56,481 bases of DNA from Rhizaria sp. SCN 62-66. Lineage: Eukaryota. The stretch lies in the NCBI GenBank assembly GCA_001724265.1, contig MEDY01000175.1:1-56481 (forward strand), read 5' to 3'. A program made the translations under genes and the position numbers. The stretch's first letter is position 1, and each line of letters starts with the position of its first letter. Under the pieces are notes generated by a model. The model searched no databases and had not been told where the DNA came from. It saw nothing but the letters and a program-made list of their open reading frames with translations. This document shows positions 1,597 through 56,481 of this stretch, one piece after another.

Positions 1597-4518
1597 TCAC
1601 GCGTTGTAGGGCTCGCTGCTCGCATCAACCTTGGCCACCAGTGCCGCGGCCTCCTCCGCGCTCAGCCGCGGGTACAGCTCGGCCAAGCACTCGGCGAGCG
1701 AGCTCTTCTCGGCCGGCCGTAGCTCCTTCTCGTAGCGGGCCAACTGCACCAAGAAGCCCTTGTTGGGCAACACCTGCTGGCGGCGGCCGCGCACCATCGC
1801 GACTGCGTGCAGGAGCGAGCAGTGGTAGGCGCGCATGGTGTACGCAATCAGCAGGGACGCGGAGCGGGAGACGCCCAGCTGGCAGTGAATCAGCACGGCG
1901 CCGTGGCCAGCGGTGCAGTTGCCCGCGGACGCCGAGCTTGTGGCGAGGGCGGAGTCGATGAAGGCAAAAGCCTTCTCGAGCTGCGGCCGCAAGGGGGCGT
2001 CGTCGACGTCGGCCAGGGACAGTTGAAGGTAAGTCAAGCCGGGGCCGCCGTCGGAAGCTAAACCGCCCGCGACGCTCTCGACCACAGTCCCCTTGACATC
2101 CGCATCTGCGTCAGCGACGCTGTCAGCAGGACTGTTGTTGTTGCCCGCGCTGGCGCTAGCGTTGGAGCTAGCAAGGACCAGGTGGTAGTTCGGCGTCTCT
2201 GCGCTGGCGTTGAGGACATGTGTGACCCCAAGTGCGCGCAGGTGCGCGAGGTTCGACGCGTCCGACTTGGAGCCCAGGAACACGGCCCCGTCGATGACCT
2301 CGCTGGGGTAGCCTGGGAACATTGGCGCGTGGCTATGAGCGGGCAGCGCCGCGACCATGTCGCCGCCGCCGGACATACCCGCGGTAGCAGCTGCACTGGC
2401 CGCGGCGCCGTTCGCACTGGCGCTGGCATTGGCGCTGGCGCTGGGGCTAGGGCGCAGGGTGGTGCTGGCGTTGATGCTGCGGGTGTTGCTGTTGCAGAGC
2501 AGGAAAGGGTACCGCTGCAGAAACGCGACAGCGCCCTCGGGCAGCACCTCGACTGCGGCGACCTTGCCCTCGACCAGCAGCAGCGCCGCCACGGCCTCCA
2601 CAATTGAGCCCTCCACACTACTGTCGCCGGCGCCACTACTGTCCGCGGCAGCAGCAGCAACAGCGGCAGCGGTAGCAGTGGGCTGGCCGCAGATGATGAC
2701 GACGCGGCGGCCGCGGAGACGCCAGACGCGCGCGTCGCTGGCAATTGCAATGCCGCCGGCGGCGCCCACGTTAACGCCGTTGCTGCTGGAGTCCCCAGAC
2801 GCAGCACTGGCGGGCTCGGCGGCGGCGGCGAGCGCGGCGGCGGCGGCGGCGGGGCCCTGGGCCGCGGCGGACTGCAACGCCTTGACCAGAGCCTCGCTAT
2901 CGTCATCAGCGCTGCTGCTGTTGCCACTGCAGTTAAAGGGGATGTTGACGGAGCGCGGGATGTGTCCCGCGGCATACTCCTTCCGTGGCCGCGTGTCGAT
3001 GACCAGGGGCGCGTTCTGCGCCCACAGCGCGTTGAACACGTCAGGGGCCAGCGCGCGGGTCGCCACTACCGCGTCAGGCACGGCTGCAGACACAGCAGCC
3101 GGCGCAGCGTCGGCCGCGGCCGCAGTCGGAGGCGAAGCGTTGGGCTCGGCCTCGGCCTCAGCGGTCGCAGTGGCCGCGGCCATGGCAGTGGCCGTGGCGG
3201 TGGCCGTGGCAGCGGCAGCGCGGAGGGTGCGGGCGGCGCGATGCTGGCGCAGACGCTCCTGGGCAGAGAGGCCCGACGACAAACGCACACCACCGCCCGC
3301 AGCAGCGCCAGCAGAGTTCGCTTGGTCGCTAGCATTATCACTGTCGCCGCTGCCGTTCGCGGCAGCACTCGCGTTGAGAGTGGTGTTTGCACTCGCGCTT
3401 GTCGCGTTATTGGTGTAGGCGTTGCGGCGGAGCGTGGCCTGCAGAGAGGCGGCCTGGACGCGGGCCTTGGCCACTCGTGCAGCGACAGCCTTGTCGTCAG
3501 CTGTCGGCTTGGTGGCCTCGGCCTCAGTTGTAGCGGCAGCGGCGGCGGCGGCAACGGCGGCGGTGGCGGCGGCGGCGTTGGTGGGCGTGAGGGTCAGCGG
3601 CGGGGCAGGGGGCAGGGCCACTAACAGGTCGTCGTCCTCATTGTTGTTGCTGTTGTTGTTGTTGTTGTTGTTGTTGTTGCTGCTGCTGCTGGCCGTGTCG
3701 CTCGCGTCGCTCATGTCAGTGAGAGACGAGGGCGAGGGCAAGTCAGGAGCCGCGGCGAGCGGGGAGAAGGCGAGGGAGAGCGACGCGGTGTCACTGTTGT
3801 CGTCGCCGTTGTTGTTACTGCCGTTGTTGCTGTTCAGAGTATTATTGTTGCTGTTCAGAGTATTGTTGTTGCTGTTGTTGGGGATTTTGAGCGCCGACAA
3901 GGGGGCCACGTGGGCGGCGTTTATGATGCCGCTGACACTGAGACTCACATCCAAGGCATCGTCGGCCTCAGCTTCAGCAGTGACAACCACACCAGCGCCC
4001 GTCGCATTGCCATTGGTGCTGCCATTGCCGTTGCCGTTGCCATTGCTGTTGCTCTTGCTGTTGCTCTTGCTGCCGCTCGTCACGGGGGAAGCTGGCGCAA
4101 GGGCGCGCACGACGACGGGCTGCATCAGCCGAGCACTGCCGCCGCTAGAGCTAACTGCAGCGCCGGGAGTCGCATTGGCCGCGGCATTGGCGTTAGCGGC
4201 AGAGCTTTTGTCCGCGTTGCCGTTATTGTTGTTGCCGCTGCGGTTGCTGCTGTCGGCAGAGCTGGTGCTGGGGGCTGCCTCTGCGACCTTGATGAGCTTG
4301 TGGCAGATGTCGCACACGCGCTGTGGGCTACGGTCTGCAACCACAGCGGGCGGCAGCACGGCGCAGCGACGCGAGCACTCGTCGCAGACGAGCTTGCCGC
4401 AGGCGCGGCAGTGGTGGCGGCGGCGGAGAAACCAAGTGAAGGGCTGCTCGCAGAGGACGCAGCCCGACGAGGAGGAGTCGGCCTGCCACAGCGGCGGCGC
4501 GGTGAACAGACTGGACAT
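1597..4518 (-). CDS. FYVE + rhodanese + dual-specificity phosphatase (MAPK-phosphatase-like), ~973 aa, single exon
   Basis: Likely ATG at 4518 (MSSLFTAPPLW). FYVE motifs WxxD, RRHHCRACG and RVC; rhodanese-like LVIDTRPRKEYAAGHIPRSVNIP; DSP motifs PSEVIDGAVFLGS, GVTHVLNA, catalytic IHCQLGVSRSA and PNKGFLVQL. Stop TGA. Confidence 0.9.
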   Translation of the reverse strand: MSSLFTAPPLWQADSSSSGCVLCEQPFTWFLRRRHHCRACGKLVCDECSRRCAVLPPAVVADRSPQRVCDICHKLIKVAEAAPSTSSADSSNRSGNNNNGNADKSSAANANAAANATPGAAVSSSGGSARLMQPVVVRALAPASPVTSGSKSNSKSNSNGNGNGNGSTNGNATGAGVVVTAEAEADDALDVSLSVSGIINAAHVAPLSALKIPNNSNNNTLNSNNNTLNSNNGSNNNGDDNSDTASLSLAFSPLAAAPDLPSPSSLTDMSDASDTASSSSNNNNNNNNNSNNNEDDDLLVALPPAPPLTLTPTNAAAATAAVAAAAAAATTEAEATKPTADDKAVAARVAKARVQAASLQATLRRNAYTNNATSASANTTLNASAAANGSGDSDNASDQANSAGAAAGGGVRLSSGLSAQERLRQHRAARTLRAAAATATATATAMAAATATAEAEAEPNASPPTAAAADAAPAAVSAAVPDAVVATRALAPDVFNALWAQNAPLVIDTRPRKEYAAGHIPRSVNIPFNCSGNSSSADDDSEALVKALQSAAAQGPAAAAAALAAAAEPASAASGDSSSNGVNVGAAGGIAIASDARVWRLRGRRVVIICGQPTATAAAVAAAAADSSGAGDSSVEGSIVEAVAALLLVEGKVAAVEVLPEGAVAFLQRYPFLLCNSNTRSINASTTLRPSPSASANASASANGAAASAAATAGMSGGGDMVAALPAHSHAPMFPGYPSEVIDGAVFLGSKSDASNLAHLRALGVTHVLNASAETPNYHLVLASSNASASAGNNNSPADSVADADADVKGTVVESVAGGLASDGGPGLTYLQLSLADVDDAPLRPQLEKAFAFIDSALATSSASAGNCTAGHGAVLIHCQLGVSRSASLLIAYTMRAYHCSLLHAVAMVRGRRQQVLPNKGFLVQLARYEKELRPAEKSSLAECLAELYPRLSAEEAAALVAKVDASSEPYNA

Positions 4519-4962
4519 CCGTCGCCACGCGCGCGCTGAACGTGGCGGGCGGTGGGGGGAAAGGGGGGAAGCAGGAGTGGATGAGGCCAGGGTGGGGCGG
4601 AGAGGGCGAAGGGTGGCATGCGCCGATGTTAAAATGGGTAGACTTTGAGTGGTATATTGTTTGTAGTTGAGTGAACATAAGTGAAAAATACACCTTGTCA
4701 ATCAAGCCTTCGAACTGCGCTGCTTTTGTGTCTATAGACGGAACGGTTAATGAATGATAACTCTGAGAATGGTGAGGTCGTATCTCTCTGTGGCTGGCCG
4801 CGTGCGTCGGGCGACGAGGACTGAGCCAGACTGAAACGAGATGCGACAACGATCTTTCCAACGTCAGATTCAAACGTAACGCTGCAGACGAACCTATCTC
4901 TAGATTTTAACTAAAGCCTGCTATTTATATCACCACAAGTGGTCGTTGACTCTCCCTGTGCG

Positions 4963-5603
4963 ATGGACCCATCACGGTCGGCCGGCTCTCGGTCAAGTAG
5001 GCCCAGCAGCAGTGAGCCCGAGAGCTTCCCTACACCTGGAACTGATGCAGCTGCTGATGTGCCCGCACGTACGTCCCCGCCACATCGCGAGTTTGCTGCC
5101 GTGGGCCTCTTTGACGATCACGACGACGGCGCTCTTCGCATCGCGATGGTACGTGACTGACACCTCCAGCACTATGCGTGCAAATGAAAATACCTTAACT
5201 AAGGCACCTATTCAGCATATTACTAATATAAATTGTTGTATTTTGCATATGTTGCGTGCTAATATTATTATAAAACGCCATCACTTAATCATAAACAGAC
5301 ATAGTATCACAATATCGAACAAAAGCTAGTTAACATTCTCTTACTTACGAACACGACCACTGCTTGCTTGCTTCGAACCTCTTGACTTGTGCTGTGCCAC
5401 GTGTGTGATATTTCGCGCAGTTCATGGACCACCAGCGGCGGATCAAGGAGGAGAAGGCTGCCGCCGTAGCAGCGGCACTGGCCTCGGCCTCTGGCTCTGG
5501 CTTGAGCCTTGCGACTGCGACGGCGAGTGCGACCGTCGTTGCGGCCCCCTCCTTAACCCACAACAAAGCTCAGAAGCACCATACGTTGCCCGCTAAGCTT
5601 TGA
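4963..5603 (+). CDS. Small two-exon hypothetical protein (~122 aa); exons 4963-5148 and 5421-5603
   Basis: ATG at 4963. Phase-0 AT-rich intron 5149-5420 (GTACGT...CGCAG) joins ...ALRIAM to FMDHQRRIKEEKAAAV.... Both exons are GC-rich. Stop TGA. Confidence 0.6.
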
Positions 5604-5725
5604 ATTGCACATATTTAGCACGAAACTACCTTCATTAATACACTAGCACTTCAACCGTTATCGTAATAACAACGCAAGCTATCTTCAAAGCATTCTGTCC
5701 GTTGGCTCATCTGCATTCAAGGCTC

Positions 5726-6573
5726 TTAGTTGCTGCCGCCGCTGAGCGTGATCGCCGGCGTCCCCGTGGCCGCGGCAACGGCCTCCAGCGCCCCCGCCGT
5801 GGCCCTCGCCTGCGCCAACGCGTCCTCCCAGCCGGCCTCGGCCTCACCGCGCGCGGCGGCGGCGACGGCGAGCGCACTGCGCAGCCGCGCCACCTCGAGC
5901 CGCTTGGCGGCCACGGCGGCCGCGCGCGGGGCCAGGTCAAGCCGGGATAGCGCGTCGCCGGCGGCGGCGAAGCCCGCGGCGTCCCCGCCACTCGCGGCGG
6001 CGGCAGCGGCAGCGTTGGAGGGAGATGTGCTAGCGGTGTTGTTGGTGCTGGTGATGGCGGCGGCTACAGCGTCAGCCGCGGCGGCGTCGTCCAGGGCCGT
6101 GAGGGCCTGAGCAAGACCGGATGAGGAGGCGGCGTTCTCGAACTCGAGCTGTTGGGAGCGGTCGATGATGAGGCAAAACATATTGAACAAAATTCGATCG
6201 TGAGAGAAAGTGAAATGAGATGTGAGCTGATGCTAACAGTAGATACCATACGACAATCTATCAAGACATGAAACACGCGCATCGTCAATGCCAGCATGAT
6301 ATGAATAGAATATGATGTGCCAAGCTAACGTACAAGGACGCCGTCACGGATCGCGGCCTGGTAGTAGCGGCCGACCTGGCGGAGGAAGATCTGCTGCCAC
6401 AACGTCGCCGCGGGGCCCTCCAGCTCGAACCCTTCGCTGAGGGCGTCGGCGGGGATCGCCTTAAATGCGCGGTCCAGCGCCTGGGTCAGGTACACCTCGA
6501 GCAGCTCTAGGCGGCGGTTGCGGGCGGGACCGAAGGCAGGGGCAGCATCAGCCGAGGCGGGTGTGAAGGACAT
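5726..6573 (-). CDS. Nnf1/PMF1-like kinetochore (MIS12 complex) subunit, ~220 aa; exons 6573-6334 and 6148-5726
   Basis: Phase-0 intron 6333-6149 (GTACGT...AACAG). The spliced protein RRLELLEVYLTQALDRAFK...RDGVL|LEFENAASSSGLAQALTALDD resembles the Nnf1 pattern (R...AL, EF...L..LD), followed by a coiled coil. Family call is by eye. Stop TAA. Confidence 0.6.
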
Positions 6574-8188: not shown

Positions 8189-10164
8189 ATGTCCGACTCC
8201 GCTCTGGACCTCGCCGCCTCATCCCTCGGTAGTCTGGGCCCCCTCGCCCAGTCCCTCCCTTCGGTGCTGCCCGCTTCCCTTTCCGCGCTGCCCTCCGCGC
8301 TCACTGAGGCCGTGCACACGTTGCGCCCCGTTGCCATGCGCGCCTGCGTTCGCCTCGCCCACGCCATTTCGCCCCCCGAGATCACCTCCTCCGCGGCAGC
8401 GGCCTAGTGGGCGGCTCTCACAGGCCACGCCGACGCCAGCGACGCCGCGACACCCTTCGTGACGGCGACGCACTTCTGCGACAGCCTCTCGCGCTTTTCC
8501 GCCTTTGACAGCGTCGACTCGCCGCTGGCCTTCCCGGCCCCGGTGCAGACTCTGCGCGCGCTCGTCACTCTGGCCGCCTTCGCGGTCACGGTCGCGGTGG
8601 CGGTGTATGTGCTCGTGCACGTGCTCTTCCTCCGCAAGCGCAAGGCCGGTACGTATCTGCTCGATGTGGCAACGTACAACGACTTCCGCCCCGAGTGGAC
8701 CGTTAGCGCGGAGGAGTGGGCGTCGCGCGCGCAGAGCTGGTTCAACATGGATCCTGAGGACATCCAGTTCAGCCGCACCATCCTCGAGCGCAGCGGCATC
8801 GGAAACCGCACTGTACGTTACTTATTTAGAAGATACTAGACTCATATTGCTTTGAACTACTCTACTTAGCGGCGTTGGCTAATTTCTATTTGATTGGAGC
8901 TTAAAGGAGCCCCATTTGACTCGTATCTCACACGTTCACTTTGCTTTCTTCCTTCCACACGCCACACAGCACTTTCCCCCTGGCATCGCCATGTTCCCTC
9001 CCGACCTGTCGATTGCAAGCGCGCGCTACGAGGCCGAGCTCGTGATGTTCAACTGCGTTGACCAGCTGCTCAAGCGCAACAACGTGCACCCCAAGGATGT
9101 CGACATCCTCGTCGTCAACTGCTCTCTGTTCAATCCCACGCCCTCACTTGCGGCTATGATCATCAACAACTACGGCATGCGCGAGGACATCATGTGTTAC
9201 AACCTCTCCGGCATGGGCTGCTCGGCCTCGCCCATTGCGGTTGATCTGGCTTCACAGATGCTCCAGGTCTCCAAGAAGCGCGATCCCGTGGCGATCGTTG
9301 TGTCGATGGAGAACATCACGCAGAACATCTACCTCGGTCGCGAGCGCGCCATGATGGTCGCCAATTCGCTCTTCCGCATGGGCGGCGCCGCTGTCATGCT
9401 GACCAAGCACGCGCACGCCGCCAAGGGTCGCCCCGCCGCGGGCTGGAAGCTCAACGAGCTCGTGCGCGTCCACATGGCGGCCAACACCAACGCGTACACG
9501 TGCGTCTTTCAGGTAAGTGTTCTCTCTTCTTTAAGTTAAATTCAAACGTTATAGTCATGATTACATAAGCATGTGTCTATATTCGGAATCTACATTTTAA
9601 TTTCAATAGTATTTGTGAATTTTGATTTTCATAGTGATCTCACAGCCACACATCTTATTGTTTCACTTCTCTCGCATGCAGGACGTCGACAAGGAGACCA
9701 AACCTGGCGTCCGTCTCGACAAGTCGCTCATGAAGGTTGCCGCGCAGGCGCTAACCCGCAACATGACCATCCTGGGCCCACGCATCCTGCCCTGGCACGA
9801 GAAGGCGCGCTACGGAGTGCTCACAGCGCTGCGCCTGTTCAAGGTCTGGCGCAACCCTGCGCTCGCGGCCTCGCTGCCGCCTGTCGTGCCGAACTTCAAG
9901 TCGGCGGTGCAGCATATCTGCATCCACGCGGGCGGCCGCGCCGTCATTGACGCCATCCAGAAGGCGTTGTCGCTCTCAGACGCGGATGTGAAACCCTCGC
10001 GCGACGTGCTTTATAAGTATGGCAACACCAGCTCCAGCTCCATCTGGTACGAGTTCGCAAACATTCTCGAGAACCGCAAGCCCCAGGTCGGAGACAAGGT
10101 CTGGCAGATTGCGTTTGGCAGCGGCTTTAAGTGCAACTCTGCCGTGTGGGAGCGCATTGCTTAA
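8189..10164 (+). CDS. KCS: FAE1/KCS-type 3-ketoacyl-CoA synthase (very-long-chain fatty acid elongation), ~549 aa if TAG 8405 is read as sense; exons 8189-8812, 8970-9512, 9682-10164
   Basis: N-terminal TM helix followed by YLLD; ILERSGIG; DILVVNCSLFNPTPSL; catalytic NLSGMGCSAS; LFRMGGAA; HICIHAGGRAVID; GNTSSSSIWYE; QIAFGSGFKCNSAVW. Two phase-0 GT-AG introns (8813-8969, 9513-9681). Stop TAA. Confidence 0.95.
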
Positions 10165-11413: not shown

Positions 11414-14400
11414 TTACTTCTTGCCCTTCTTGCCCTTGTCGCCCACCGCAGCCGCCGCGGCGGCCGCAGCAGCCGCGTTCTCCTGCTGCTGGTGCTGCTG
11501 CTGGTGTTGCTGCTGCTGCAGCCGCAGGATGGCTTCGACGCTCTCGGAGATGGTCCGGAGCGCGTCCCGCACCGTCTGCTGCTGCGCGGCCTCGCTGCGG
11601 GCTAGCGCGGCCGCTGTGGACCGCTCCAGCGCCACCACGCGGGCCGCCAGCGCGCCGCAGACGGCGGTGACCGTGAGCACGCATAGTAAGGCGCCGGGGG
11701 ACGGCACGGGGGCGGCGGCGGGAAGCACGAGACCCAGCGCGGCGACAAACACGACCAGCACCGCCACCACCGCCAACACCGGCACGGCGACGCCGCCAGT
11801 GGCAGCGGGAGCGCCGGGGCCCGCGCTGGCGCCCAAGCTGTCGAGCGCGCAGAGGCCGCCGGAGCCGCCGAAGCGGCACAGCGGGGCGGTCGCGCCCCAG
11901 AGGCTGGACTGCAGCGTCTGGCACAGCGACTCGAGACCGAGCCACACGCTCGCGGGGCCCGCGCTCACGACGGGGACCGCGGCGGCGGTCTCAGCGGGAG
12001 CGGTCGGCACTGCGGGGGCGGCGACCCCCACCGTCGGCACATCCGCAGCCGCAGCCGCAGCAGCCACAGGGGCAGCACCAGCAGCAGCGGCGGCGGCGGC
12101 ACCACCCGCGCCAGAGGCAAGCCTGCCCGAGGTGTAGACCGCAACGCTCTTGGCGGCGGCGGCGTTGGCGACGGCGGCGGCGCCCATTGCGCGCGCCCAC
12201 GCCGCAGCCTCGGGCTTGGCGCGGACCTGCTCCTGCGCCCAGGCCAGCCACTCGCGGACGGCGGCGCCGCACTCGTTGACGGTGCGTGACTCGATCATGC
12301 CGATAAAAGGGCGCACCTTCCACGTGCGCTGCACCATGCGCACGCCCGCTCTAACGGCCACAGCGCACGCCTGGGCCTCGGCGCCCGCGCCGTCCGTGGT
12401 TGAAGGGGACGGTGTGATGCGCCACGACTCCACGACCACAAACGTGTCGCCGAAGGGCACGTCGGGCGTATTGTTGGTCACGTCCATGGCGAGTACCACG
12501 GCGTCCGCACTGTTGCTGCCGCCGGCAATAAGCGCGGCGCGTTGGACCTTGTGCAGCCGCGAGACGGGGGAGACGGGTGAGTCGACGGTGACCTTGGTGG
12601 TGAAGTCACGCGCGACGAAGCCGCCCACGCCCAGCTCCCCTGCGCCCGCGGGCAGCACCGGCACGGTGGCCGCGGCCAGCGCAACAGGCGCGGCGGGCGG
12701 CGCGGCAGGGTCGTCGGCGGGGCCCGGCAGGCGGTGCCAGCGCGAGACCGCGGCGGGCGGACACTTGAGGTGCACGTGGTAGGGCACAGGCCCCGCGGGC
12801 GCGTTGTCGGCCAGGAAGAAGTAGAAGAAGGCCGCCGGGGAGAGCGGGAAGGTCGCGGTGCCCATGTCCTTAAGCGCCACGTCGGCCGTGCCGATGTTGG
12901 CCGGCCAGTCCTTGAGCGCAGGCGACAGGCGGGGCACCACCAAGCCCGCCGGGTCTGCGGGCGGCGCTGGCACTGCAGGTCCCGCCGCGGTCTCGGTCTC
13001 GGCCGCAGCCGGAGTCGGAGCCGCAGTGCCAGTCGCAATTAAAGCCGCAGAGTCGGTCCCCGCAATCACGACGGGCGTACTGGGGGCGGCGGCGACGGCG
13101 GGCACCGCCAGCGCGGCGGCGATGCTCGCACTAGACTCGGTGGCGCTGCCGTGGGGCGCGGCCGGGGCGCCAGAGTCCTCGTTGTCGTCCTCCTCCTGCG
13201 TCGTCAGGGTCATGGACGGCACGGCGTGTGCGTTCGCCGCCACGGCGGCAGCGTTGGCGGCGTTGGCGGCGGCGGCGGCGGCGGCCGCAGAGCTCGACGG
13301 TGTGCTGGAGAGCCGCTTGAACGCGGAGCTGATCTTGGACGCGAACGACTTGGACTGCGGCAGCCCGGGGCCGCCGGCAGAGCCGCTCACGCCTCCGGAG
13401 CTGGAGCTGGAGCTGGAGCTACTGGAGCTCAAACTGCTGTTGGAGGCGCTGGCGACTCTGGGCGACGGCGGCGGCTCCGTCGAGCACAGCAGCGGCGTCA
13501 GCGCGGGACTCCCGCCCGCCCCCGCAGCAGCGACGCCCCCGGTGTAGCCATGCGCGGAGGGCGAGGCGGGCGCCGCTGACGGGCTCAGCGGCTGCGGCGG
13601 GGGCCCCGCGGCGGCGGTGGGCGCCGAGGCCGAGTGAAGCAGCGGCGTCGATTGCACGCTCGCGGAGCCGGAGCCGTGCGCGGCGCTGATGGGCGGGTGC
13701 GGCAGCGCGCGCGTGTCGCGCATGACGCGCACGAGCTGCGGCGGCATGCGCAGCGGCAGCAGCGCGAACGGTGCGCACGCGCCCGGGACGGCAGCGCCCG
13801 GGGCCGCGCCCGCGCCGCCGGCGCCCACGGCCACGCCTGTGTGGCTGGTGGTGGTGGCGGCGGCGGAGGCGTGCGCCAAGACCCAGCGCCAGAGCGCCGT
13901 GAGCGCGGGCGTGGGCGCGGCGAGCACGCGCGCCTTGCTCTCGCCCGCCGCTGGCACGGTGAAAGCCAGCGCCTCGAGCGGGGGCGTCGGGCCAGCACTA
14001 ATGGGGCCGGCGTAGCCGAGGCCGGCGTGGCCGAGGGGCGCTGGAGAGTGCACCGGGGTGCCGGGGGCCGTGGTCAACGCGGCCGCGCCGCCGACGCCCG
14101 GGCCAGCGGGGCGGCGGGGGGTCTCGGGCGGCGCGTTCAGCGACAGGGCGACGGCAGACGTGTCGTCGTTAGCGCTATTCCTGCTACTCCCGCAGCCCTC
14201 AGCGTCGGCGTCAGCCGCGGCGGTAGCGGCGGCGGCGGCGGCGGCCTCGGCAGCGGCCTCAGCGGCGGCGGCGGTGGCGGTGCCGTTGAGGAACACTGCG
14301 ACGGAGCTGTGCACCTTGCCCTCGGTGTTGACAACGCCGTGGCCGCCGCTACCACTGCCACTGCCACTCGCACTCGCGGCAACGGGGCATGCGGCGCCCA

Positions 14401-15612: not shown

Positions 15613-15646
<34 letters not shown>

Positions 15647-16066: not shown

Positions 16067-16097
<31 letters not shown>

Positions 16098-38583: not shown

Positions 38584-39032
38584 ATGGCCAAGCACCACCC
38601 TGACCAAATCATGTGCCGCAAGCAGCCGGGCGTGGCTGTTGGCCGCCTGTGCTTGAGCTGCGACGGCAAGTGCTGCCTGTGCGACAGCTTCGTGAAGCCC
38701 CACACGCAGGTCCGCGTCTGCGACACCTGCGACTACGGGGCCATGCAGGGCCGCTGCATCATCTGCGGCAATAAGGGCTACTCCGACGCCTACTACTGCA
38801 AGGAGTGCTGTCTCCTTGAGAAGGACCGCGACGGTACGTGTTTATCTTTCAAACTCTCCATAAATACCTTGCTTCTCGCTTCCTGTCCAGCATTCCTTAC
38901 CTCACCATATTCTCTCTCGCTCTTGCGTTCCTTTTCGTCCTTTTAGGCTGCCCCAAGATCATCAACCTCGGCACAGCCAAGTCAGACAACTTCTACGAAC
39001 GCAAACGTGCCGCGGGAACAAAGAAAACATGA
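38584..39032 (+). CDS. PHF5A: PHD finger-like domain protein 5A (Rds3/SF3b14b), U2 snRNP SF3b subunit, 111 aa; exons 38584-38833 and 38947-39032
   Basis: MAKHHPD...CRKQPG...DAYYCKEC...[14 protein letters not shown]...FYERK. Phase-1 intron GTACGT...TTTAG. Stop TGA. Confidence 0.97.
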
Positions 39033-39048
39033 CCTCATAAGCCTAGCC

Positions 39049-39744: not shown

Positions 39745-42700
39745 TTAGCCGCGACGGTCAAACTTGCGCACCTTGGCTCCCTTGAAGAAACCGCCCTTGC
39801 CGCCAGAGGTCCGCTCAGCCTTCTTGCCGCCGAAGCCGCCAGAGCCTGAGCCAGCGCCAGCGCCGCTGCGGTAGTTGTCATTCTTGCCGCGCGAGTCCTG
39901 CGATGCGCGCTTGAAGTCGATGCGCCCGTCCTTGCCGCCGTAGCTCTCCTTGAGGTCCTTGAAGCCGGTGAAGCCCTTGATATGGGCGGCCGGCCCCACG
40001 GCGCGCTGCGCGTTGTCCATGATCTTGACCATGCCATGGTCGCGGTTGTAGACGTTCTTGCGCGCGACGTTGACGGCGTTGGCCATCATCTGGAACGCGC
40101 CAGACGACGCGTGCGCCGTCTCGCCCGTCATGTGCATGCGGCCGACGTCGCGCGCCGAGTCGCGGTGCGTGGCCGACAGGTCGAACTGCGAGGCCGCCGC
40201 GTCCGTCGCCGTCGACGAGCGCGGGCGCTTGATCACGGCCTCGCCGGCCAAGGGAATGCGGCGCACGCCGAGGGCGTCACGGTCGTCGTCGCCGTCGTCG
40301 TCGCTGTCGTCGGCGACGGTCGCGCGGAGGCTCGGAGTCGCAGCAGCAGCAGCAGCAGCGCTAACAGCAGGGGAGTAAGGTTTGCTGCCACTGGAGAGCT
40401 TGGTGGCGATGTCTTCGTGACGGTGGTCGTCAGCGTCGTCGTCACCGCCCCAGCTGTTCTTGTTCAGCGAACTCGTGCCCTTGGCGAGCTTGGGTACCGC
40501 GCGCTTCACACTGCCCTGGCGAGCGCCGGCGGCCTCCATGGCCTCCTTTACAGCACGCTGCGCCACGACGCCGCCGACCTTGGCCGCGGCGGTGACCGTG
40601 GCGGCCGTGTACACGGCGGCGCCGCTGCGGCGACCGAGGTCGACATCACTGTCGCTGTTGTCGGCCGCGGCCGCGGCGTGCAGGTCGGCCGCGCGCACGC
40701 GGTTGCGCTTCTGCTTCTGGTGCTCCTGTTTCTGCTTCAGCTGCTGCTGCTTGGCCTCCGCAGCGGCAGCAGCAGCGGTAGTGTCGGCGTCCTTGGTCCC
40801 GTCGCGGTTGTTTCCGGCGCGGCCGTCGCTCTCCTGCTTGTTCTTGCGCTCGATGCGCTTCGCCATCTCGTCCTTGACGGCCCAGATGGCGTCCTTGCCT
40901 GTGAACTCGGTGCGCACCTTCTTCAGCCGGCCCGCGTCGAGCGCGGAGTCGTACTCGTCGCGCACGTAGCCCAGCTTCCCGCTCGCCGCGACCTCGGCGG
41001 CGGCGTCTGCGGTGCCCGCGGAGCCCGACCGGTCGGCGCCGTCCCAGCCCTCGAGCTTGGGCGCCGTGGCGAAGATGGCGGCCGCGCCCTTGGCGAGGTA
41101 GCGTTGCTGGCCTGCGCGCATGGCGTCGGTCACGCCGTCGAGCTTCTCCTTGGTCGCGCGGCGGCGCGCCTTGGCCTTGAGTCGCAGCGCCTCCTCCGGA
41201 GTCACGAACTTGCTGTTGCGGGCTGCGGCCGCGGTCGCGTTGGCCGCGGCAGCGTCCTCGTCCTCGTCATCGTCGTCGCTTTCGGTCTCACTGTCAGCCT
41301 TCTTGCCCTTGTTCTGAGCCTTGTTCTTAGACTTGGCGTCCGAGTCGGAGTCGGAGTCGCGTTGCGTGCTCTGTACGCGGCCGTCCTTAGCCTTCTTGCC
41401 GCGCGTGCTCACCTTATCCTCGGCGTCGCTGTTGCCGTGGCCGTCGTCGTCGCTGTCGCTGGTGTCTGACCGCACCGCCGCCTTGCGCGCAGCCGCCTTG
41501 CTGTCGTAGTCGTCGCCACCATCGTCGTCGCTGCTGTCGGCGGCGGCGTTGCTGTCTTCGCTCGAGTCCGACATTGCGGCCAGCGCGGCGGCGCGGGCGG
41601 CCTTGGCGGCAGCCTTCTTGCCCAGCGCCGCGGGCATGGCTACGATACGGCCGACGCCGCTGCTGCGCTCCGCGGCGGCCAGGAACGCCGCCGCAACCGA
41701 GGCGGACTTGGCCTTATCGCTGAGGGGCTTGCGCTTCTTCTTGCTGCTGTCGTTGTCAGACTCGGACTCGGACTCGGACTCGGACTCGGCGGCGGCATTG
41801 GCGTTGGTGTCCGTGTCGGAGTCGCTGATGGCGAGCAGTGCGGCGTACTCAGCGGGCACTTCGGACTCAGCCTTCTGAGGGACAGTGCTGACCTTGGCGG
41901 CGGCAGCGACAGGAGCGGAGATCTTAGTGGGCGCAATGAGCTTCTTGCCCTTGGAGTCGGGAATAGCGGCGGATGTCTTGAAGACGGCGGCATTGGTGAT
42001 AAGCTTCTGAGACTTCTTCCCCGCGGCAGCGTCATCGCTGTCACTCGAGTCGCTCATGTCATGCTCACCCTCACCGTCGTCCTCATCGCTGTCGAGCTCA
42101 GCCTCATCGGACTCAGTTTCGGTGTCAATCTCACCGTCCTCGTCCTCGTCCTCGATGTCATCCTCAGCATCGGCCTCGTCCTCATCCTCGTCGGCAATAT
42201 CGCCCTCGAGCTCGCCGTCCTCGTCAGCCTCGTCATCGCCTTCAGCAATGTCGCCCTCGCCCTCGTCGCCTTCATCGCCGTCGAGGTCGTCGCCCTCGTC
42301 ATCGCCCTCAAGCGTCGCTTCATCGCCCTCAGCAAAGTCCGTGCCGTCGTCGTCGTCCTCGTCCTCGTCAGAGCGCGCGTCGCTTTCGAAGCCAGTGACG
42401 TCGTCTGCGTCGGGGTCGTAGTCGACGCCGAAGTTGGACTTCATGAACGCAGCAATGCGCGCGTTGGTATCGGACTCATCATAGTCCTCCTCCTCTTGCT
42501 CTTCCTCATCCTCGAAGTCATCCTCGTCGTCATCGTCAGAGTCAGAGTCAGCGTCCAAATCAGCGTCAGCGTCCTCATCAGCGTCAGCGTCCTCATCAGC
42601 GTCATTATCGTCGTCGTCACTGTCGCTGCCACTGTCGGCCATGGCCGTGAGCGGCGCGGCGCTTGCGACGGCAAAGTCAATGAGACCCTTCTTGGCGGCG

Positions 42701-48700: not shown

Positions 48701-49013
48701 TGTCGTCGTCGAATGACGCGCGGGAGGCGCGGATGCGGGCCTCCACGTCAGCGTACGCGTCGGCCGCGGCGCCCGTGGCGGCGGAGGCCGCAACGGAGGC
48801 CGATGAGTTGCTGCGGGCGGCAAAAACGGCCGAGATGACGTTCGTGGACGCGGCGGCGGCAGCCTTGTCCTTCTTCTTGGACGAGACATGGGCCGATGCT
48901 GAGGCAGCGCCCTGCTTGTTAGGGGTTTGTGCGGGGTGCACAGTGGCAGAGCCGCCAACAAAGCCCTTGTTGTGCTTCTTCGTCACACCGATGTGATGCG
49001 CGTTGAAGGACAT
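39745..49013 (-). CDS. USP36: USP36/USP42-like (nucleolar) ubiquitin-specific protease, ~3039 aa; exons 49013-45623 and 45473-39745
   Basis: GLANLGNTCFLNSALQ; FCAVCTLQ; the intron 45622-45474 splice creates FGDQEDAHE; GGVLRSQIRCSVC; FLDLS; YRCARC; LTIHLKRF; YRLCGLVVHHGSMGNGHYY; AYVLVYEK. Acidic tract and C-terminal DEYDSALDAGRLKKV resemble the USP36-family tail. Stop TAA. Confidence 0.88.
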
Positions 49014-49428
49014 GTGAGTATGCGAGTGTCTCCCGAGTGGGAAAGAGAGAAAGCGAAGGACAAGAGACTGTGATCGCAAGAGGAGAGAAGAGGTGGATTT
49101 GGTAAGCGGAATGTCGAGGAGTTCATCAAGCAGTGAAGATTTTAATGGAGAATCGAAGTATTTGCGCCATGATGGTAGCGGTAATGAATGTGGTATAACT
49201 ATTTACGGAAGTGTAGTGCTGTTACAGCAGTGTTTCGCGGCACGCAGTCCGTGGTTTGGCGGTCTCCTGCCCAGCCGACCAGAACCAAGCCTCGCTTTGG
49301 CGCCTTGCAGCCTCGATGTCATCAACTTCAGGCAAGGTTATCGATATTAAAACAACGTCAAATTGCCGAGAGACTTTGCATCCTGGTTAGCTCTTGAGCT
49401 TCGTATGTGATATTTCAATTACATCTCT

Positions 49429-50644
49429 ATGTCTCTTCGTTTCGCTCCTCGAGTCGCAAGTGAGCTCCGCTCGCTTGCACGGAATCCTCCTTCTGGTACG
49501 TCTCTTTTCCCGCTCCCCTGCAGACTTGATAGGAGATGCTCATAGAAATAATATCCAGCTCACAACGTAGGCATGGTGCGCAACTTTATTATATCGTATA
49601 GGAATCACTGTTTCACACACTGGCGAGGACCAGGGCATGATGCTCCTGACCGCAACCCTCGCCGGCCCTCCTGACACCCCCTACGAAGGTGGTGTCTTCA
49701 CTCTGTCCGTGCACCTCCCGCATGACTACCCGCTGCGCCCGCCGCAGGTCCGCTTTATTACGCCTGTTTACCACCCGAACATTGACGAGAGCGGCCGCAT
49801 CTGCCTCGACACGCTGCGCATGGCGCCCTCGACCTCATCGGCCTCCACCTCGGCCACTGGGGGGCTCCACTCCGCGGCTACGACGGTGGGCGCAGGCTCC
49901 CTCTCGGCGCCCGCTGCGGCCGCGGGGTCGGGCTTCTGGACGCCGCTGCTGACGATCGAGGCGCTGTTGCTGACGCTGCAGGTCATGTTAGCGCACGCCA
50001 ATCCTGACGACAGTTTGGTCCGCGACATCGCTTCTGAATACGTCACTGACCGGCGGTTGTTCAATGAGAAGGCGCGCTCATGGGTTCGCATGTACGCGTC
50101 ACCCACCGATGCCGACGGCTACGACGCTGATGGGCCTGCTGCGATTGAGAACGTAAGTCGCACTGCCTCGTCGCGGAGCAAGACCGTACCGGTGACGCCA
50201 CCAAAGCGAGCCAATGCCAACGCTGTTGTGCGGACGATGAACGCGACCGCGCAAGGCGGCGGCGCTTTGCTGTATACGCCAGGTAAGCGCTCTCGAACTA
50301 GTGACAGCAACAGTATGCGCTCTCGCAGCAGCAGCTGCAGCAGCAGCAGCAGTAACAACAACAGCGAAGACAGGAATGTGACGAGTGAGGCCGCCGGCTC
50401 GGACCCTGCGTCTGGTCCTGATGCCAGTGTAAAGGCCCGCGACTGTGATCATTCGTTTGCGGCTGCTTTGTCGCGCGCAATCACAACGCGTTGGAATGTT
50501 GAGCGCTCAGTTCCTACAGTAACATCAGCTGTAGCAGCAGCAGCAACAGCCTCAGCGACAGCAACATCACCATCTGTCGGAGAGGGAACTGACCCTCCGG
50601 CTGCAGCGCTTAACGGCAGCGAATTTTGGAGCTTTCTGACATAA
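49429..50644 (+). CDS. UBE2T: Ubiquitin-conjugating enzyme E2 T-like, ~369 aa; exons 49429-49495 and 49602-50644
   Basis: [59 protein letters not shown] (catalytic Cys); [14 protein letters not shown]...ARSW. Phase-1 GTACGT...TATAG intron. Stop TAA. Confidence 0.85.
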
Positions 50645-50866
50645 AACACAGATGCAATCAAATAGTAACGCCAAGTACATGGAGGGGCTGTCAAGCCATC
50701 TGTGAGTGCCGCGACTTAAGTGAACATACATACTTTACAAATATTTTTTTATTTAGACGAACAGTTATAACAGTGAATACAAACAATGAACCTGAATACA
50801 ATACGAATTCACGGCGACAGCGGCAAATCAATGCGTGCAAAGCTTGAGAACGTCAGGAGCCGGTCT

Positions 50867-53800
50867 TTAGTCAGTCGGCGATGAAGCAGGATTCGTGGCG
50901 AAATAGGTCGAATAGAAACCATTAAAGTCGAGCCGTGTCAGCAGGTCACTCCAGTCGCCCACAGCTGCATTGTTGCCGCCGCCGCTGCTAGCGCTGCCCG
51001 TCGCCGTGGCCGCAGTGGCCGCCTCGGTCTCTGCCGCTAGCAGGGCAACGAAGGCGCGCAGTCGGTCGTCGAAGGACGTGGAGAACTTGTTGATCATAAG
51101 CGCAAAGTGCGGGTGCGAGACCACGCCCGACGCGCGCGCCGTACGCTCGGCCACCTTGAGCGCGCGCGCGCGGCCGCAAAGAACACCCGAAGCGGTCCCC
51201 GCGCCGCCCGCGGTTGCGCCGCCAGAGCCGGCGCCGTCGCCTTGCTGCAGCTGCGAGAGTACCGCGTCTGCGGGCGAGGCGTCGACCGAGGCGGCGAGGC
51301 GGCGCGCGTTGTCGGCAAAGAGCAGGCAGTAGGTGAGCACCTTGACCAGCACGGCGAGCAGCCGCGGGTGCGTGAGCATGCAGGCGTGCAGCGCGCCGTC
51401 GAGGAAGCCCGAGTGCAGCCGAACCACCTCGTCGACGGTCGAGGCGATGGCGACGCGCGCCGCCATCGCCTGCCATGCCGGCTCCAGCGCGGTGTGCGCA
51501 AGGTAAGTCGACAGCGAGGTGACCAGGTGCAGCATGCGGTGCCGCAGAGTGTTGGCGGCGGCGAGTGCACGCTCCAGAGAGGCGGACTTGAATGTCTGCA
51601 GCGACGCGAATGCGGCGCCGAGCCTGCGCTGCACGTGCCGCACGAACACTAAGTGCCGGAACAACAGCTGATACTTAGTCAGCGAGCGGCGTGAGAACAC
51701 GAGGTTGAGCGGCCAGTCGACGCGCATAGTGAGAGCAAGCACGTCCAGGCCGCGCAGCGCGTTGCCCGCAGAGCCTGCGGCGGCGGCTTGCCGCTGCTGC
51801 TGCTGCTGCTGCTGTTGTCCAGTCGCCGCAGAGCTATTGACAGCGGCGCCCGCGGCGGCGGCGGCGATCGCGCCGGTGGGCTGCAGGTAGCACACGATCT
51901 GGTCCCTGTAGGGGTCCTTGCCGGCGCCAGTTGTGCGAACCGCGTCTTCCCACAGGGCGTCGAGCTTCGCGGCTGACACCGCCGCGGCGGGCAGCGCGAG
52001 TTCGGCCCCCGCAAGGTCGAGGAAGCGCGAGGCCAGGTCGCCGTAGCCGAGTAGGAAGAAGCCGCGCGCCGAGGCCAGCCGGCCCGCCAAGTCCAGGCCC
52101 CGGGGCGCGGGGGACCGGCACAAAGACAGTGCGGCTGTCGCGGCGGCAGCGTGCGCGGCGCCGATCGCCGCGGCGAGGATGTGCGGCTGCTCCAGTACGA
52201 GGCGCGGGTTCCGGGCCAGTGTGCTGAGCGCAATTTGGTGTAAGCTGCCACTCTGGCCGTGCGAGGTGCTCACATCGGCGTCCAAGTAAGGCACCAACGC
52301 GGTCGCGCCGGAGCCTGCGCTATTAGTCAGGCCGCCGTCGTTGATGGACGAATGCAGCCGCAGGACGCCCCAGTGCCGGCCCGCTAAAAGAAGCATCTCT
52401 GCGTGCGGCCGCAGGAACAACGGCACCTCAGACAGCGGCCCCGCGTCGTCCTCGCCGCCGTCCTCCTCCGCAGCGGCCGCGGCCAGCGCGGCGCCCGCGG
52501 CGGCGGTGTCGGCGGCGGCGGGCGCGCGGTGCGCGTACCGCTGGTGCCAGTATGCCTCGCCCAGGTCCTGAGCGACGCGGTCGCCACCCCAGTCTGCCGT
52601 GGACACGATGTGGAACTCGTCCCACGCGTCGCCCTCCAAGTCCGCGTGGCAAGCCCACGCCGCAGTCAGCGCCAAGTACGGCGCGGCGGCGGCGGCCCAC
52701 AGCGCGGCCCAGTCGTCGCGCGCCGCCGCGTCGCCCGCGCGGAGCAGCGCGCGGTGGACGAGGGTCAGCAGGTGCGCGCCCCGGCCGCGGCGGCCGCGGG
52801 AGAGCGCCGCCGTGAGCAGCCAGCGCACCCGGGCCCAGCGCGCGGCCGCGGGGCGCGTCGCGTGCCACAACTGCAGCAGCGAGAGGCCGCGCGGGGCCTG
52901 TAACGCAGCTTCCAGCCGGGCGATGAGCAGCGCATGGCCGCGGTGCCAACGCGCGATCGCCGAGCAGAGCGACGTCCACACGGAACCGGCGCCGGCGGGA
53001 CGTCCCGCGGCGGCCGCAGTCGTCACTGCGGCGGCGAAGGCGGCGTCGCGGCACAGCGGCAACACGCGCGACACCGTGTCGGCGAACGCGGGGGGGAGCA
53101 CGGCGGCCGCAGCGGGCGCGAGGTCTAGGCGGGTGGCCGCGGCGGCGGCGGTCAAGGAGTCCCAGCCAAGCGCGGCTGCCACGGGCAGCCCGGTGTCGGT
53201 GATCATGTTGCTCGCGCCCGCAGCGGCGGCGGAGGCACTCGCAGTGGCGGAGGCTGCCGAGTCCGCGGGGACGGCGACGATGAAGCGCGAAGGCAGCCCC
53301 TCGAGCGCGGAGAGCAGGTCGTCGCACAACACGGCCTCCTGCTGCTGCGGGGGCAGCGCGCCCAGCACTGACGCCGCGGCGGGCGCGGCCGGGGACGCGA
53401 GCGCGGGCAGGCAGCCGCGCGCCGTGAGGGCGGACACGGCGCCGGGACCCAGCAGCGAGGCCGCAAGCGGCGGCGGCAGCGGGCGCGCGGCGTCGGCGGC
53501 CGTCACCGGCGCCGGGGACGGGCGCGCGGTCAACACGCAGGCGCGCGCGCGGGAGCCTCCGGCGGGCGTCGTGGCCGCCGTGGCCGCCGGCGCCAGCACC
53601 CACTGCGCGCAGTCTGTGGCCAGGGCGGCGGGGGCGATGGCGGCGATGGTGGCCACGGGGGCGGGGCGGCCGGTGAGGGCGGAGATGGGGCCCGCGGTGA
53701 CGGTGAGCCACAGGCCAGAGGCGGTGTGCTGCAGCCACACAGGGGCGCCCGCGGAGATAGAGTGGCCGTAGGGTGCAGAGTGGTGGCCATGAGAGGCCGA

Positions 53801-54896
53801 GTGGTGACCGTGAGCAACGACGCCGCCAGGAGTACTCGCAGTGAGGTGTTGCAGAGGGTCGACGACGGTCCAAGCAGCGGATTTAATGTCAGCCGCGTCA
53901 CTACTCTCAACACTCGTGTTCGGGTTAACATTGCCGGAAAGCGACGAAATGACTGTGAGGGCATTGTTCGAGTTATTGCTGTTGGAGACGGCCAGCAGCG
54001 CAGGGGTGCCAAGGGCGGCGATGAACACGGTGGCTCCGTGGCGCAGCACAGACGCAGTCGCCGCACTGCCACTCACGCCGGCCACAAGCTGCTGCTGCTG
54101 TTGCTGTTGCTGCTGCTGCTGATGCGACTGCGACTGGGTCGGGTTGGGGTGAGGCGCAGGGACGAATGCGAAACCACAGAAGGCGCTCCGAGTGCGGCTT
54201 GACTTCGGTGCGCCACTGACGCCGTACAGCTGTTGCTGCTGCTGCCGGTACAGCGCCATCGCAGCGCCGTTGTCACGGTTGCTGCTGGCGCTGCTGCTGT
54301 CCTGAGCTTGCGGGAGCGTGATGGCGGCGCCGGCGCGGGGACGCTCGCAGTCGCTGCCCACGGTCGCCAGTCCCGCGCTCACGGTCACATTTGCGCCCGC
54401 CCCGTCCGCTGCGGCGCCCGCACTGGCGTTGCCGAGGTTGGCGCTGCCGCACTCGGTGAAGACGGAGAGGAAGAGCTCGGTCGCCGGGGCGGCGGCAGCG
54501 GCGGCCGCGGCGGCGGTGTTGGCCGTGGCCGTGGCCGCGGAGACAGCGAAGCCGAGGCGTTCCGTTGCACTCAACGCCGCGGCGGCGGCGGAGGACGCGG
54601 CGGCCGGCACGGGCGGCGCGGTGAAGGGCAGCGCTGAAAGCACGGCGTCGAAGAGACCGGCACCGCTGTCTGCGGCTGCGGCGTTAGTATGGGAGAAGGC
54701 GGGGGCGGCGGGCAGGTGCAGTGGCGGCGGGTGCGGCTGCAGGAACAGGGGCGCGCCCGTCAGAGTCGAGGCGAGGCCCCAGGGAGAGACGACGGGCGCG
54801 GGCTGAGGCTGCTGCTGCTGCTGACGGTGATACTGCGCGGAAGAAGGCGTATTCGCATGAGGATAAGACTGGGTGTGTCCATGGGGCAGCAAGTTA

Positions 54897-54948
<52 letters not shown>

Positions 54949-55702
54949 ATGAGCGATAGAGGTTGTGCGCACTGGCAGAGCTGGCAGTCGGCAACGCAGC
55001 CCCGCTGGCAGTGACAGCAGTCGCGAGTGGGGCAGCCACATGTACAGCGTTGACCTGACTAGTGTTCGTCGTGGTCATTGCAGCCGAGGCAGCGGCGTCG
55101 TTGGTTTTGATGTACGTGGGATGGTAGTTGGCGTAGTCGCTGGCCGTTGCCGTCGGCAGCGGCGCAGCAGCGGCAGGACCAGCGGACGACAACGACGCGG
55201 ACGACGACGAGGACGACGTAGATGCAATGTAGGCGCGATGGTTCACAGAAGTAGCAGGAGCAGGAGCAGGGGCAGGGGCAGGGGCAGGAGCTGTGCTTGT
55301 GACAGGAACACGAGAGGGCGCAACACCACTAGCTAGCGCGGGCGGTGCGGCGTAGTGACGCGGCAGTGCAGGTGCAGCCGCGCTTGAGCTCACAGGAGCA
55401 CCTGCAGCAGGAACAGAAGCTACTGAAGCGGGGGCAGGAGCAGGGACGTAGGTAGCCTCAGAGTTCTGCGTTACAGAGTGTTGAACAGGTGCAAAAGACG
55501 CGGGCGCAGCACCAATGTTGGCCGACTGACCGGTAGCGCGCGGAGGGGAAGCCACGGCGGGGCCTGCGGCCGCGTTCTTGGCGGCGAGTGAGGCGTTGAT
55601 GTTGCTCAGCGTGGCGCGGTATGCGGCGACGGCCGAGGAGAACGACGCTGTGCTCGGGGCGGGGGCGCCGGGCGCGGGGTTAGAGGCCCCGGGGTCAGAC
55701 AT
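50867..55702 (-). CDS. TUBGCP2: Gamma-tubulin complex component 2 (Spc97/GCP2), ~1611 aa if TAG 54947 is read as sense
   Basis: EAVLCDDLLSALEG; DAWDEFHI; YWHQRY; VPLFL...LLAGRHWGVLR; FFLLGYGD; GLDVLALTMRVDWPLNLVFSRRSLTKYQLLFRHL. ORFs 55702-54947 and 54892-50867 are in the same frame, separated only by one TAG. Stop TAA. Confidence 0.88.
54899..54946 (-). repeat. (CAG)16 coding microsatellite (poly-Gln)
   Basis: 48 nt of perfect CTG repeats on the + strand, immediately preceded on the coding strand by TAG. Confidence 0.95.
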
Positions 55703-56312
55703 CTGTGCAAAGACTTAACAGACTGAAACAAAGTTACTGTGATGACTGGGAACGCTGGGAAGTCATGTGAAGAGAACAGAGAAGGCGGGAGCACGAGGTG
55801 AGAACGAGAAGATAACTTGTAGGCAATATACATCAGGATACCTGCTACAATTTAAATATAACAAATGATGCATCGATTATATTCACAGAAAGTCCTCCGA
55901 AATTTAGAATGACGAGTATGCATGATGATTTATTGATTCCTAGCTTGCCTCTCTTGTGCGACTTCGAACGGGCCACAACCCCCACCCTCGCGCCACCACA
56001 GCGTAGCAAACAAATCGGACGATACGACTAAAGGAAGATATTCACGGCATGAACAAAGTCAAATGAACGCAAAACTGAAGTATATCATACTTGAAGATGA
56101 ATAATAAATGTGTGTATGTATCTGTGTTGACCGAAGCCGCACAAACAGTGATTCCCTAGCGTGATCAACGTTGTGTTACACCGTCCGTCAGTCACACATG
56201 AATAAATATCTCTCTTTTACTTTATATAAAAAATACAGTACAAGTTACATATTAGAGTCGTAACCTCAAGCTATCAAAACAACACATATGCTCTATGCGG
56301 CGACTGAGTGGC

Positions 56313-56481
56313 TTAGAGCTTGGCGTTGAGGCGCTGCGGGTTGGGCTTGGGGAGCTTGGTCTTGTGCTCGAGGAGCATGTCATTGTCCGGGGGCAGGCCG
56401 GCGCAGGCGGAGAGGATGTTGGTGACCATGCGCTGCTGCTTGGCGAGCGCGTTGACGACGGGCGTGCCGGGCATGACCATG
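56313..56481 (-). CDS. INO1: myo-inositol-1-phosphate synthase, C-terminal end (runs off the window)
   Basis: My translation is [40 protein letters not shown]...AKL-TAA, matching the conserved MIPS C-terminus pattern [12 protein letters not shown]...ENI.RAC.GL.P.N.M.LE.K. It is not in the ORF track (<60 aa). Confidence 0.92.

Follow-up and report, generated by a model that had tools for sequence, protein, structure and literature searches.

Gene ends free of TAG and two in-frame TAG codons in a GC-rich eukaryotic contig: a possible sense meaning for UAG

Contig MEDY01000175.1 (assembly GCA_001724265.1, deposited as Rhizaria sp. SCN 62-66) is a stretch of eukaryotic nuclear genome of 56,481 bases and 64% GC, referred to here as the window, and the question put to it was what the codon UAG means. 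Thirteen gene ends were listed in the window, and when their stops were read directly they proved to be eight TAA, five TGA and no TAG. Two otherwise intact genes, a ketoacyl-CoA synthase (KCS) and a GCP2-type gamma-tubulin complex protein, contain TAG in frame. Taken together, these results incline us, at somewhat better than even confidence, to the reading that UAG is a sense codon in this organism, probably for glutamine (Gln), that UAA and UGA stay terminators as they do in Iotanema spirale, and that the change is recent or incomplete. The original prediction had offered the TAG-free ends as support for UAG reassignment that was independent of the in-frame TAGs. The two observations are indeed logically independent, the absence of TAG is real and contrary to the trend with base composition, and both in-frame TAGs hold up on inspection; the ends by themselves are weak to moderate evidence, for reasons given below.

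The thirteen ends lie where they had been placed; the range given for them, 1597 to 56315, runs from the outermost base of the first stop to that of the last:

1597..1599, minus strand: TGA of a FYVE / rhodanese / DSP protein (coding sequence, CDS, 1600-4518; DSPc at residues 889-992 of a 1034-amino-acid frame; GC 0.69 before the stop, 0.41 after)
5601..5603, plus strand: TGA of a small two-exon orphan (exons 4963-5148 and 5421-5600; donor GTACGT at 5149; exon 2 at +0.47 bits/codon)
5726..5728, minus strand: TAA of the gene called 'Nnf1-like' (exons 6573-6334 and 6151-5729)
10162..10164, plus strand: TAA of KCS (exons 8189-8812, 8970-9512 and 9682-10161; C-terminus confirmed by homology)
11414..11416, minus strand: TAA of a VASt-domain protein, PH-VASt (open frame and composition boundary)
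19889..19891, plus strand: TGA of Pet127 (C-terminus coincides with that of relative P0122)
20647..20649, minus strand: TAA of a USP34-like UCH-domain protein of 3609 amino acids (open frame and composition boundary)
32400..32402, minus strand: TGA of a CHAF1B-like WD40 protein (open frame and composition boundary)
39030..39032, plus strand: TGA of PHF5A (exons 38584-38833 and 38947-39029; profile matched to 104/104)
39745..39747, minus strand: TAA of a USP36-like UCH-domain protein (exons 49013-45623 and 45473-39748)
50642..50644, plus strand: TAA of a UBC enzyme (exons 49433-49495 and 49601-50641)
50867..50869, minus strand: TAA of GCP2 (CDS 55702-50870; C-terminus confirmed by homology)
56313..56315, minus strand: TAA of INO1 (the window contains just its final 55 codons)

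GC content drops across all thirteen stops, from 0.50-0.81 in the 150 nucleotides before to 0.33-0.52 after, and the coding log-odds falls too. Homology places several of the C-termini directly. In KCS the ACP_syn_III_C profile is matched over positions 9-89 of 90 and stops 3 amino acids short of the stop codon; in PHF5A profile coverage runs to 104/104; the ...RKVM end of Pet127 is identical to that of relative P0122; and GCP2 is aligned up to residue 1601 of 1611 with residue 970 of 984 in relative P0209. INO1 matches solved inositol-3-phosphate synthases (E 2e-11) and then continues for 15 extra codons. These codons, at 56316-56360 on the minus strand, look coding and follow the shared C-terminus ...LEHK. 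Of the other genes, the small orphan has a reasonable two-exon model and gave no match in Pfam, and the earlier name 'Nnf1-like' found no Pfam support when the exons were scanned singly. At 12 of the 13 TAA and TGA stops, all but that of PHF5A, the next base (position +4) is a purine.

How surprising zero TAG ends in thirteen is varies with the TAG share one assumes. The original prediction had considered shares of one third and one fifth, and its arithmetic is correct ((2/3)^13 = 0.005; 0.8^13 = 0.055). For a comparison matched in GC content at third codon positions (GC3), Ho and Hurst 2022 report on 50 eukaryotes. In the five whose GC3 exceeds 70%, TAG makes up 0.30-0.40 of the stops and TAA 0.12-0.44 (PMC9348620); the TAG shares are 0.30 in Emiliania, 0.32 in Aphanomyces, 0.36 in Ostreococcus, 0.37 in Leishmania and 0.40 in Aureococcus. 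Against these five species of 50, the probability of 0/13 TAG is 0.0013-0.0097, and that of at least 8 TAA among 13 is 3e-5 to 0.15. The same source finds that across eukaryotes TAG goes up and TAA goes down as GC3 rises (PMC9348620). With a CDS GC3 of 0.84 (13,125 training codons), the window's 8/13 TAA runs opposite to that trend.

The second line of evidence is a pair of codons inside genes:

8405..8407, plus strand: in-frame TAG, codon 73 of KCS (ATG at 8189, on a GC boundary)
54947..54949, minus strand: in-frame TAG, codon 252 of GCP2, reading tca TAG (CAG)16 (ATG at 55702, on a GC boundary)

The spliced models are all in frame and together hold 14,551 codons, with 0 TAA, 0 TGA and these 2 TAG, which would be about 0.5% of Gln codons if TAG means Gln. 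UAA and UGA, by contrast, both act as terminators (8 + 5 ends) and never occur in frame. Under the standard code no TAG is expected in frame in an intact gene, and that expectation fails at KCS codon 73 and GCP2 codon 252, which both lie in continuous coding-like frames, though some room is left for artefacts. The next base is a pyrimidine at both in-frame TAGs (TAG-C, TAG-T) and a purine at 12 of the 13 stops (Fisher 0.029).

In KCS, the ten codons on either side of the TAG score +1.3 bits/codon relative to a non-coding model and have a GC of 0.77, and no GTACG or GTAAG donor occurs upstream of it. Homology begins at residue 99 with relative P0002, or at residue 149 with the FAE1 profile, whose positions 3-61 match residues 149-208 in exon 1 and run on into exon 2's match from position 62. 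Relative P0002 aligns with exon 1 from residue 99 only, and its first residue falls near KCS residue 66. Upstream of the homology-supported part, methionine occurs only at residues 1 and 50, and each of these precedes the TAG at 73. There is thus no methionine between the TAG and the conserved domain, and translation must therefore cross the TAG, barring a non-AUG start.

In GCP2, the 251 codons before the TAG score +0.375 bits/codon in the gene's frame and the 253 after it +0.627, and the other two frames are negative. After the TAG no methionine occurs until about codon 510, that is, for 253 coding-like codons. An identical TAG-limited GCP2 protein of 1341 amino acids (P0208) is listed on 5 contigs in the protein database, so the TAG is unlikely to be a one-off read error. 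As read here, that database entry is a fragment beginning after the TAG, and standard-code gene calling shortens proteins in this genome. The TAG would open the longest of 10 glutamine runs, which together contain 65 CAG, 8 CAA and 1 TAG. It is only this context, in which a C-to-T change turns CAG into TAG, that suggests Gln as the meaning of TAG. The residue before the TAG is serine (...R S TAG Q...), and by analogy with Scotinosphaera a serine meaning is still conceivable. When residues 1-520, translated across the TAG, were used in a word-based protein search, only the gene's own truncated protein came back among the matches listed for this low-complexity query. A HMMER search with residues 1-1200 found relative P0209, aligned from query residue 685 only, so the TAG site was not covered. 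GCP2 (50870-55702, minus strand) has an N-terminal extension some 685 amino acids long, rich in polyglutamine and polyalanine, and absent from the predicted P0209 protein, which is 59% identical; P0209 starts exactly at the onset of homology and may itself be truncated.

One further candidate end lies at the left edge of the window, outside the range that the original prediction had covered:

337..585, plus strand: coding-like exon that runs into TAG at 583-585 as the first stop in its frame
721..723, plus strand: TAA that would end the same frame if TAG 583 were read through

Frame 1 looks coding between 337 and about 540. Over 337-540 it scores +44 bits relative to the non-coding model, and shifted readings give the scores typical of shifted frames. 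Coding on the minus strand was considered for 337-540 and judged unlikely, as all three minus frames contain stops. The 14 codons before TAG 583 score -1.03 bits/codon and are already non-coding-like; among the 13 known tails the minimum, -0.66, belongs to PHF5A, whose tail is Lys-rich and confirmed by homology. The 45 codons between TAG 583 and TAA 721 are also non-coding-like, at about -1.0 bit/codon, and over the 30 codons that directly precede TAA 721 the score is -0.89, below all 13 known tails (minimum -0.22 there). No consensus donor was seen near 529-540, and searches of Pfam, PDB sequences and the ESM Atlas with 337-582 returned nothing. The plainest reading of this exon is a probable fourteenth gene end, terminated by TAG; the alternatives that remain are that it is spliced to a terminal exon elsewhere or translated on to TAA 721. 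If the two internal TAGs and TAG 583 are taken together, all three have a pyrimidine at +4, whereas 12 of the 13 TAA and TGA stops, and TAA 721, have a purine (Fisher 0.007).

If UAG has been reassigned, it would be largely or wholly lost as a terminator in this organism. A cognate tRNA with anticodon CUA would decode it, most likely as glutamine, and eRF1 would still recognise UAA, the preferred stop, and UGA, and no longer UAG. The rarity of sense TAG would place the change as recent or still incomplete; very rare sense codons suggest as much. Such a reassignment would explain at once the TAG-free ends, the dominance of TAA despite a GC3 of 0.84, and the presence of in-frame TAG in two otherwise intact genes. 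It agrees with what has been published for UAG-only codes (PMC5304391, PMC11687900, PMC8271138), and has to account for the left-edge exon in some other way. The window itself contains no eRF1 gene.

A number of results weigh against reading UAG as sense, and they bear on both lines of evidence. On the side of the gene ends, homology confirms only 5 of the 13 (KCS, PHF5A, Pet127, GCP2 and INO1), the other 8 being placed by open frame and composition boundary, and for the 5 confirmed ends alone the probability is 0.08-0.32, which is nothing significant. Measured against the window's own non-coding triplets, among which TAG makes up 265 of 1284 stop triplets (20.6%), 0/13 has a probability of 0.05; with the three in-frame stops that come next in each 3' flank as baseline (TAG 5/39), the probability is 0.17. 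The probable TAG-terminated end at the left edge was overlooked by the original prediction, and counting 583-585 as a gene end gives a probability of 0.008-0.18 for at most 1 TAG in 14. The statistic of TAG-free ends by itself, with p from 0.001 to 0.17 by baseline, is thus weak to moderate evidence, suggestive and not decisive, close to how the original prediction had put it. On the side of the in-frame codons, 69% of the one-step nonsense paths from this CDS's codon usage lead to TAG, so TAG as the sole in-frame stop is also what random nonsense changes would give. Both sites sit in poorly conserved, low-complexity N-terminal extensions where relatives cover neither, and for that reason the encoded amino acid is unreadable from alignments. 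At the GCP2 site, a frame-preserving 99-nucleotide interval, GTACAT...TAG (55045-54947), is a conceivable odd intron, with a GC of 0.65 and +0.49 bits/codon. Described recoded lineages use sense UAG far more often than this window does: in Iotanema it is abundant and stands at conserved Gln positions, whereas here it accounts for 2 of 14,551 codons and neither of the two falls on a conserved position. ARAGORN found no tRNA gene in the window (0), hence no tRNA(CUA), and Rfam gave 0 matches.

The code may instead be standard and TAG simply a locally under-used terminator. The 0/13 would then be sampling noise added to a preference for TAA, and the in-frame TAGs would be nonsense alleles, assembly errors, unrecognised GC-rich introns, or parts of N-terminal extensions that are untranslated owing to non-AUG or downstream starts. 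The candidate TAG end at 583-585, the probability of up to 0.18 for at most 1 of 14 on the window's own baseline, the 69% share of TAG among one-step nonsense outcomes, the non-conserved setting of both in-frame TAGs outside the relatives' coverage, and the window's lack of a suppressor tRNA are all in its favour, as is the existence of frame-preserving GT..AG pairs at both sites (16 around the KCS TAG; 805 around the GCP2 TAG, GTACAT..TAG among them). We nevertheless consider this account unlikely. It needs two premature stops among 13 otherwise intact genes, one of them in the single GCP2 gene and seen on 5 contigs. Downstream starts meet the difficulty that KCS has no in-frame ATG between its TAG and the conserved domain, and that the GCP2 TAG is followed by 253 coding-like codons without methionine. 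Introns that would excise the TAGs are themselves unlikely: the candidates lack a consensus donor, have a GC of 0.65-0.72 and are coding-like, and in this they are unlike the 8 real introns of the window, with GC 0.33-0.44 and -1.2 to -1.7 bits/codon. Eukaryotes of matching GC3, finally, end 30-40% of their genes in TAG.

UAG might instead have two meanings, being read as sense inside genes through a suppressor or near-cognate tRNA-Gln while still terminating near 3' ends, or being partly suppressed, in a transitional state that purges TAG from gene ends. A pyrimidine at +4 is the poorest context for termination, and all three TAGs have one. An ambiguous UAG would accommodate the 0/13 ends, the two internal TAGs and the one possible terminal TAG together, as well as the rarity of sense TAG (2/14,551), and PMC5304391 reports context-dependent codes of stop and sense, involving codons other than UAG, from Condylostoma, Parduczia and Blastocrithidia. 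The terminal half of the argument, however, depends on one partial gene for which Pfam, PDB and the Atlas gave no relative; its tail before the TAG already scores -1.03 bits/codon, so that its true 3' end is uncertain. A literature search at the level of titles and abstracts also found no described case in which dual meaning is confined to UAG. We hold this to be the least probable of the explanations, with only a slender chance of being right.

Returning to UAG as a sense codon, a fuller version of that reading can be sketched, which we put forward tentatively, as a possibility and not as our expectation. The window would come from a non-ciliate, GC-rich, intron-poor eukaryote early in a UAG-only change from stop to sense, probably to Gln. 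TAG would have been nearly purged from gene ends in favour of TAA, a few sense TAGs would have arisen by CAG-to-TAG changes in tolerant low-complexity regions, and relic TAG ends would terminate weakly or extend into the former 3' untranslated region.

The genes of the window are long, with few introns and abundant polyglutamine, polyalanine and polyserine tracts. Exons are GC-rich, at about 70% GC, and introns and intergenic DNA have about 33-50%. Pfam and other searches named a FYVE/rhodanese/DSP phosphatase, an FAE1-type ketoacyl-CoA synthase, a VASt-domain protein, Pet127, two very large UCH-domain ubiquitin hydrolases, a CAF1B/HIR1-type WD40 protein, PHF5A, a UBC enzyme, the GCP2-type protein and the C-terminus of an inositol-3-phosphate synthase (INO1). 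In the USP36-like protein (39745-49202, minus strand), the UCH domain is broken up by an insertion of some 540 amino acids, and one intron (45622-45474) separates the Cys box from the remainder of the domain. The ATG of Pet127 is directly preceded by a TAG (17225-17230, plus strand); read as sense, this TAG would add 42 upstream codons without a methionine and leave the start unchanged.

The eight definable introns are some 100-180 nucleotides long with GC 0.33-0.44, and their donors are GTACGT (6), GTACGC (1) and GTAAGT (1). With the orphan's intron included, the range is 100-270 nucleotides at 33-44% GC, compared with the roughly 70% GC of the exons, and the 5' splice site is highly uniform, GTACGT standing in 7 of 9 and GTACGC and GTAAGT in the others. 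The nine introns are the following:

8813-8969, plus strand: intron
9513-9681, plus strand: intron
38834-38946, plus strand: intron
49496-49600, plus strand: intron
5149-5420, plus strand: intron of the small orphan
6333-6152, minus strand: intron
45622-45474, minus strand: intron
37140-~37038, minus strand: intron
36899-~36792, minus strand: intron

The genes also carry some hints of lineage. Among named KCS proteins the nearest, 56% identical, comes from the green alga Micractinium. A tree built from 31 of the 120 matches listed clusters the window's KCS with P0002, P0008 and P0011, outside the plant and green-algal clade, a placement that, as it comes from one short gene, is weak evidence. 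The nearest named Pet127 proteins are fungal, with 29-46% identity across a quarter to half of the protein, and an ESM Atlas search with Pet127 returned fungal Pet127 clusters only, with no lineage clue. The relatives P0002, P0122 and P0209 show about 60-78% identity (P0209 59%). A green-algal origin that would link the window to Scotinosphaera was considered, and the KCS tree gives it no support.

Nuclear codes in which UAG has changed and UAA still stops are known from few lineages only; the papers cited here describe them in a rhizarian, in Iotanema, in Scotinosphaera, in Protocruzia and in some phyllopharyngean ciliates. If UAG is sense here, the window would add one more independent origin. 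It could also show an early phase of stop-codon reassignment, as the codon is so rare and the ends are already biased to TAA against the compositional trend, and would then offer a natural snapshot of the intermediate stage over which the codon-capture and ambiguous-intermediate models disagree.

Among the known systems, codes in which both UAA and UAG mean Gln (UAR, NCBI table 6) occur in many ciliates, Dasycladales, Hexamitinae and Amoeboaphelidium. They share with the window a stop-to-Gln change involving UAG, and are excluded here, since TAA ends 8 of the 13 genes and occurs 0 times in frame. Leaky read-through of UAG under the standard code resembles the window in the pyrimidine after both internal TAGs and in the GCP2 site, UAG-CAG, which may resemble a read-through motif. 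Programmed read-through, however, normally lengthens a C-terminus at low efficiency, and in the window the TAG precedes the entire functional protein.

The ulvophycean alga Scotinosphaera, reported to read TAG as Ser with TAA and TGA as stops (PMC8271138), is a TAG-only change outside the ciliates, and the window's KCS is of the plant and algal FAE1 type. That KCS nevertheless falls outside the green-algal and plant clade in the tree, the nearest named Pet127 relatives are fungal, at 33-40% identity, and nothing seen here ties the window to Ulvophyceae. In the rhizarian exLh, UAG is reported as Leu with 56 UAA and 15 UGA ends (PMC5304391), and in phyllopharyngean ciliates it is Leu or Gln, with 92.6-96% UAA ends in TARA metagenome-assembled genomes (MAGs; PMC11687900). 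These resemble the window in that UAG alone is reassigned and UAA dominates termination. They differ in that the meaning was drawn there from hundreds to thousands of conserved sites, with tRNA(CUA) genes reported in two MAGs, and here from two non-conserved sites, neither of which suggests Leu. Our search of the literature, of incomplete coverage and mainly at the level of titles and abstracts, found no GC-rich non-ciliate UAG-only code beyond those cited.

The closest parallel is Iotanema spirale, in which UAG is reported to mean Gln, genes end in 104 UAA and 15 UGA, and 204 sense UAG in 126 genes make up about 8% of Gln codons (PMC5304391). Both of the published non-ciliate cases with TAG-free ends that this source gives, exLh and Iotanema, favour UAA (PMC5304391). 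The window differs in coming from a GC-rich (64%), intron-poor genome, where Iotanema is an anaerobic fornicate known by transcriptome, and in its possible terminal TAG. What the two share is CDS ends free of TAG (here, the 13 listed ends) with UAA as the main stop (104 UAA and 15 UGA there; 8 TAA and 5 TGA here), UAG in frame, UAA and UGA never in frame, and Gln as the likeliest meaning, since one TAG of the window heads a run of (CAG)16. If it is real, the change seen here would be a reassignment of UAG alone, with the Iotanema code as its nearest counterpart, and unusual for standing in a GC-rich genome and for its very low use of sense UAG.

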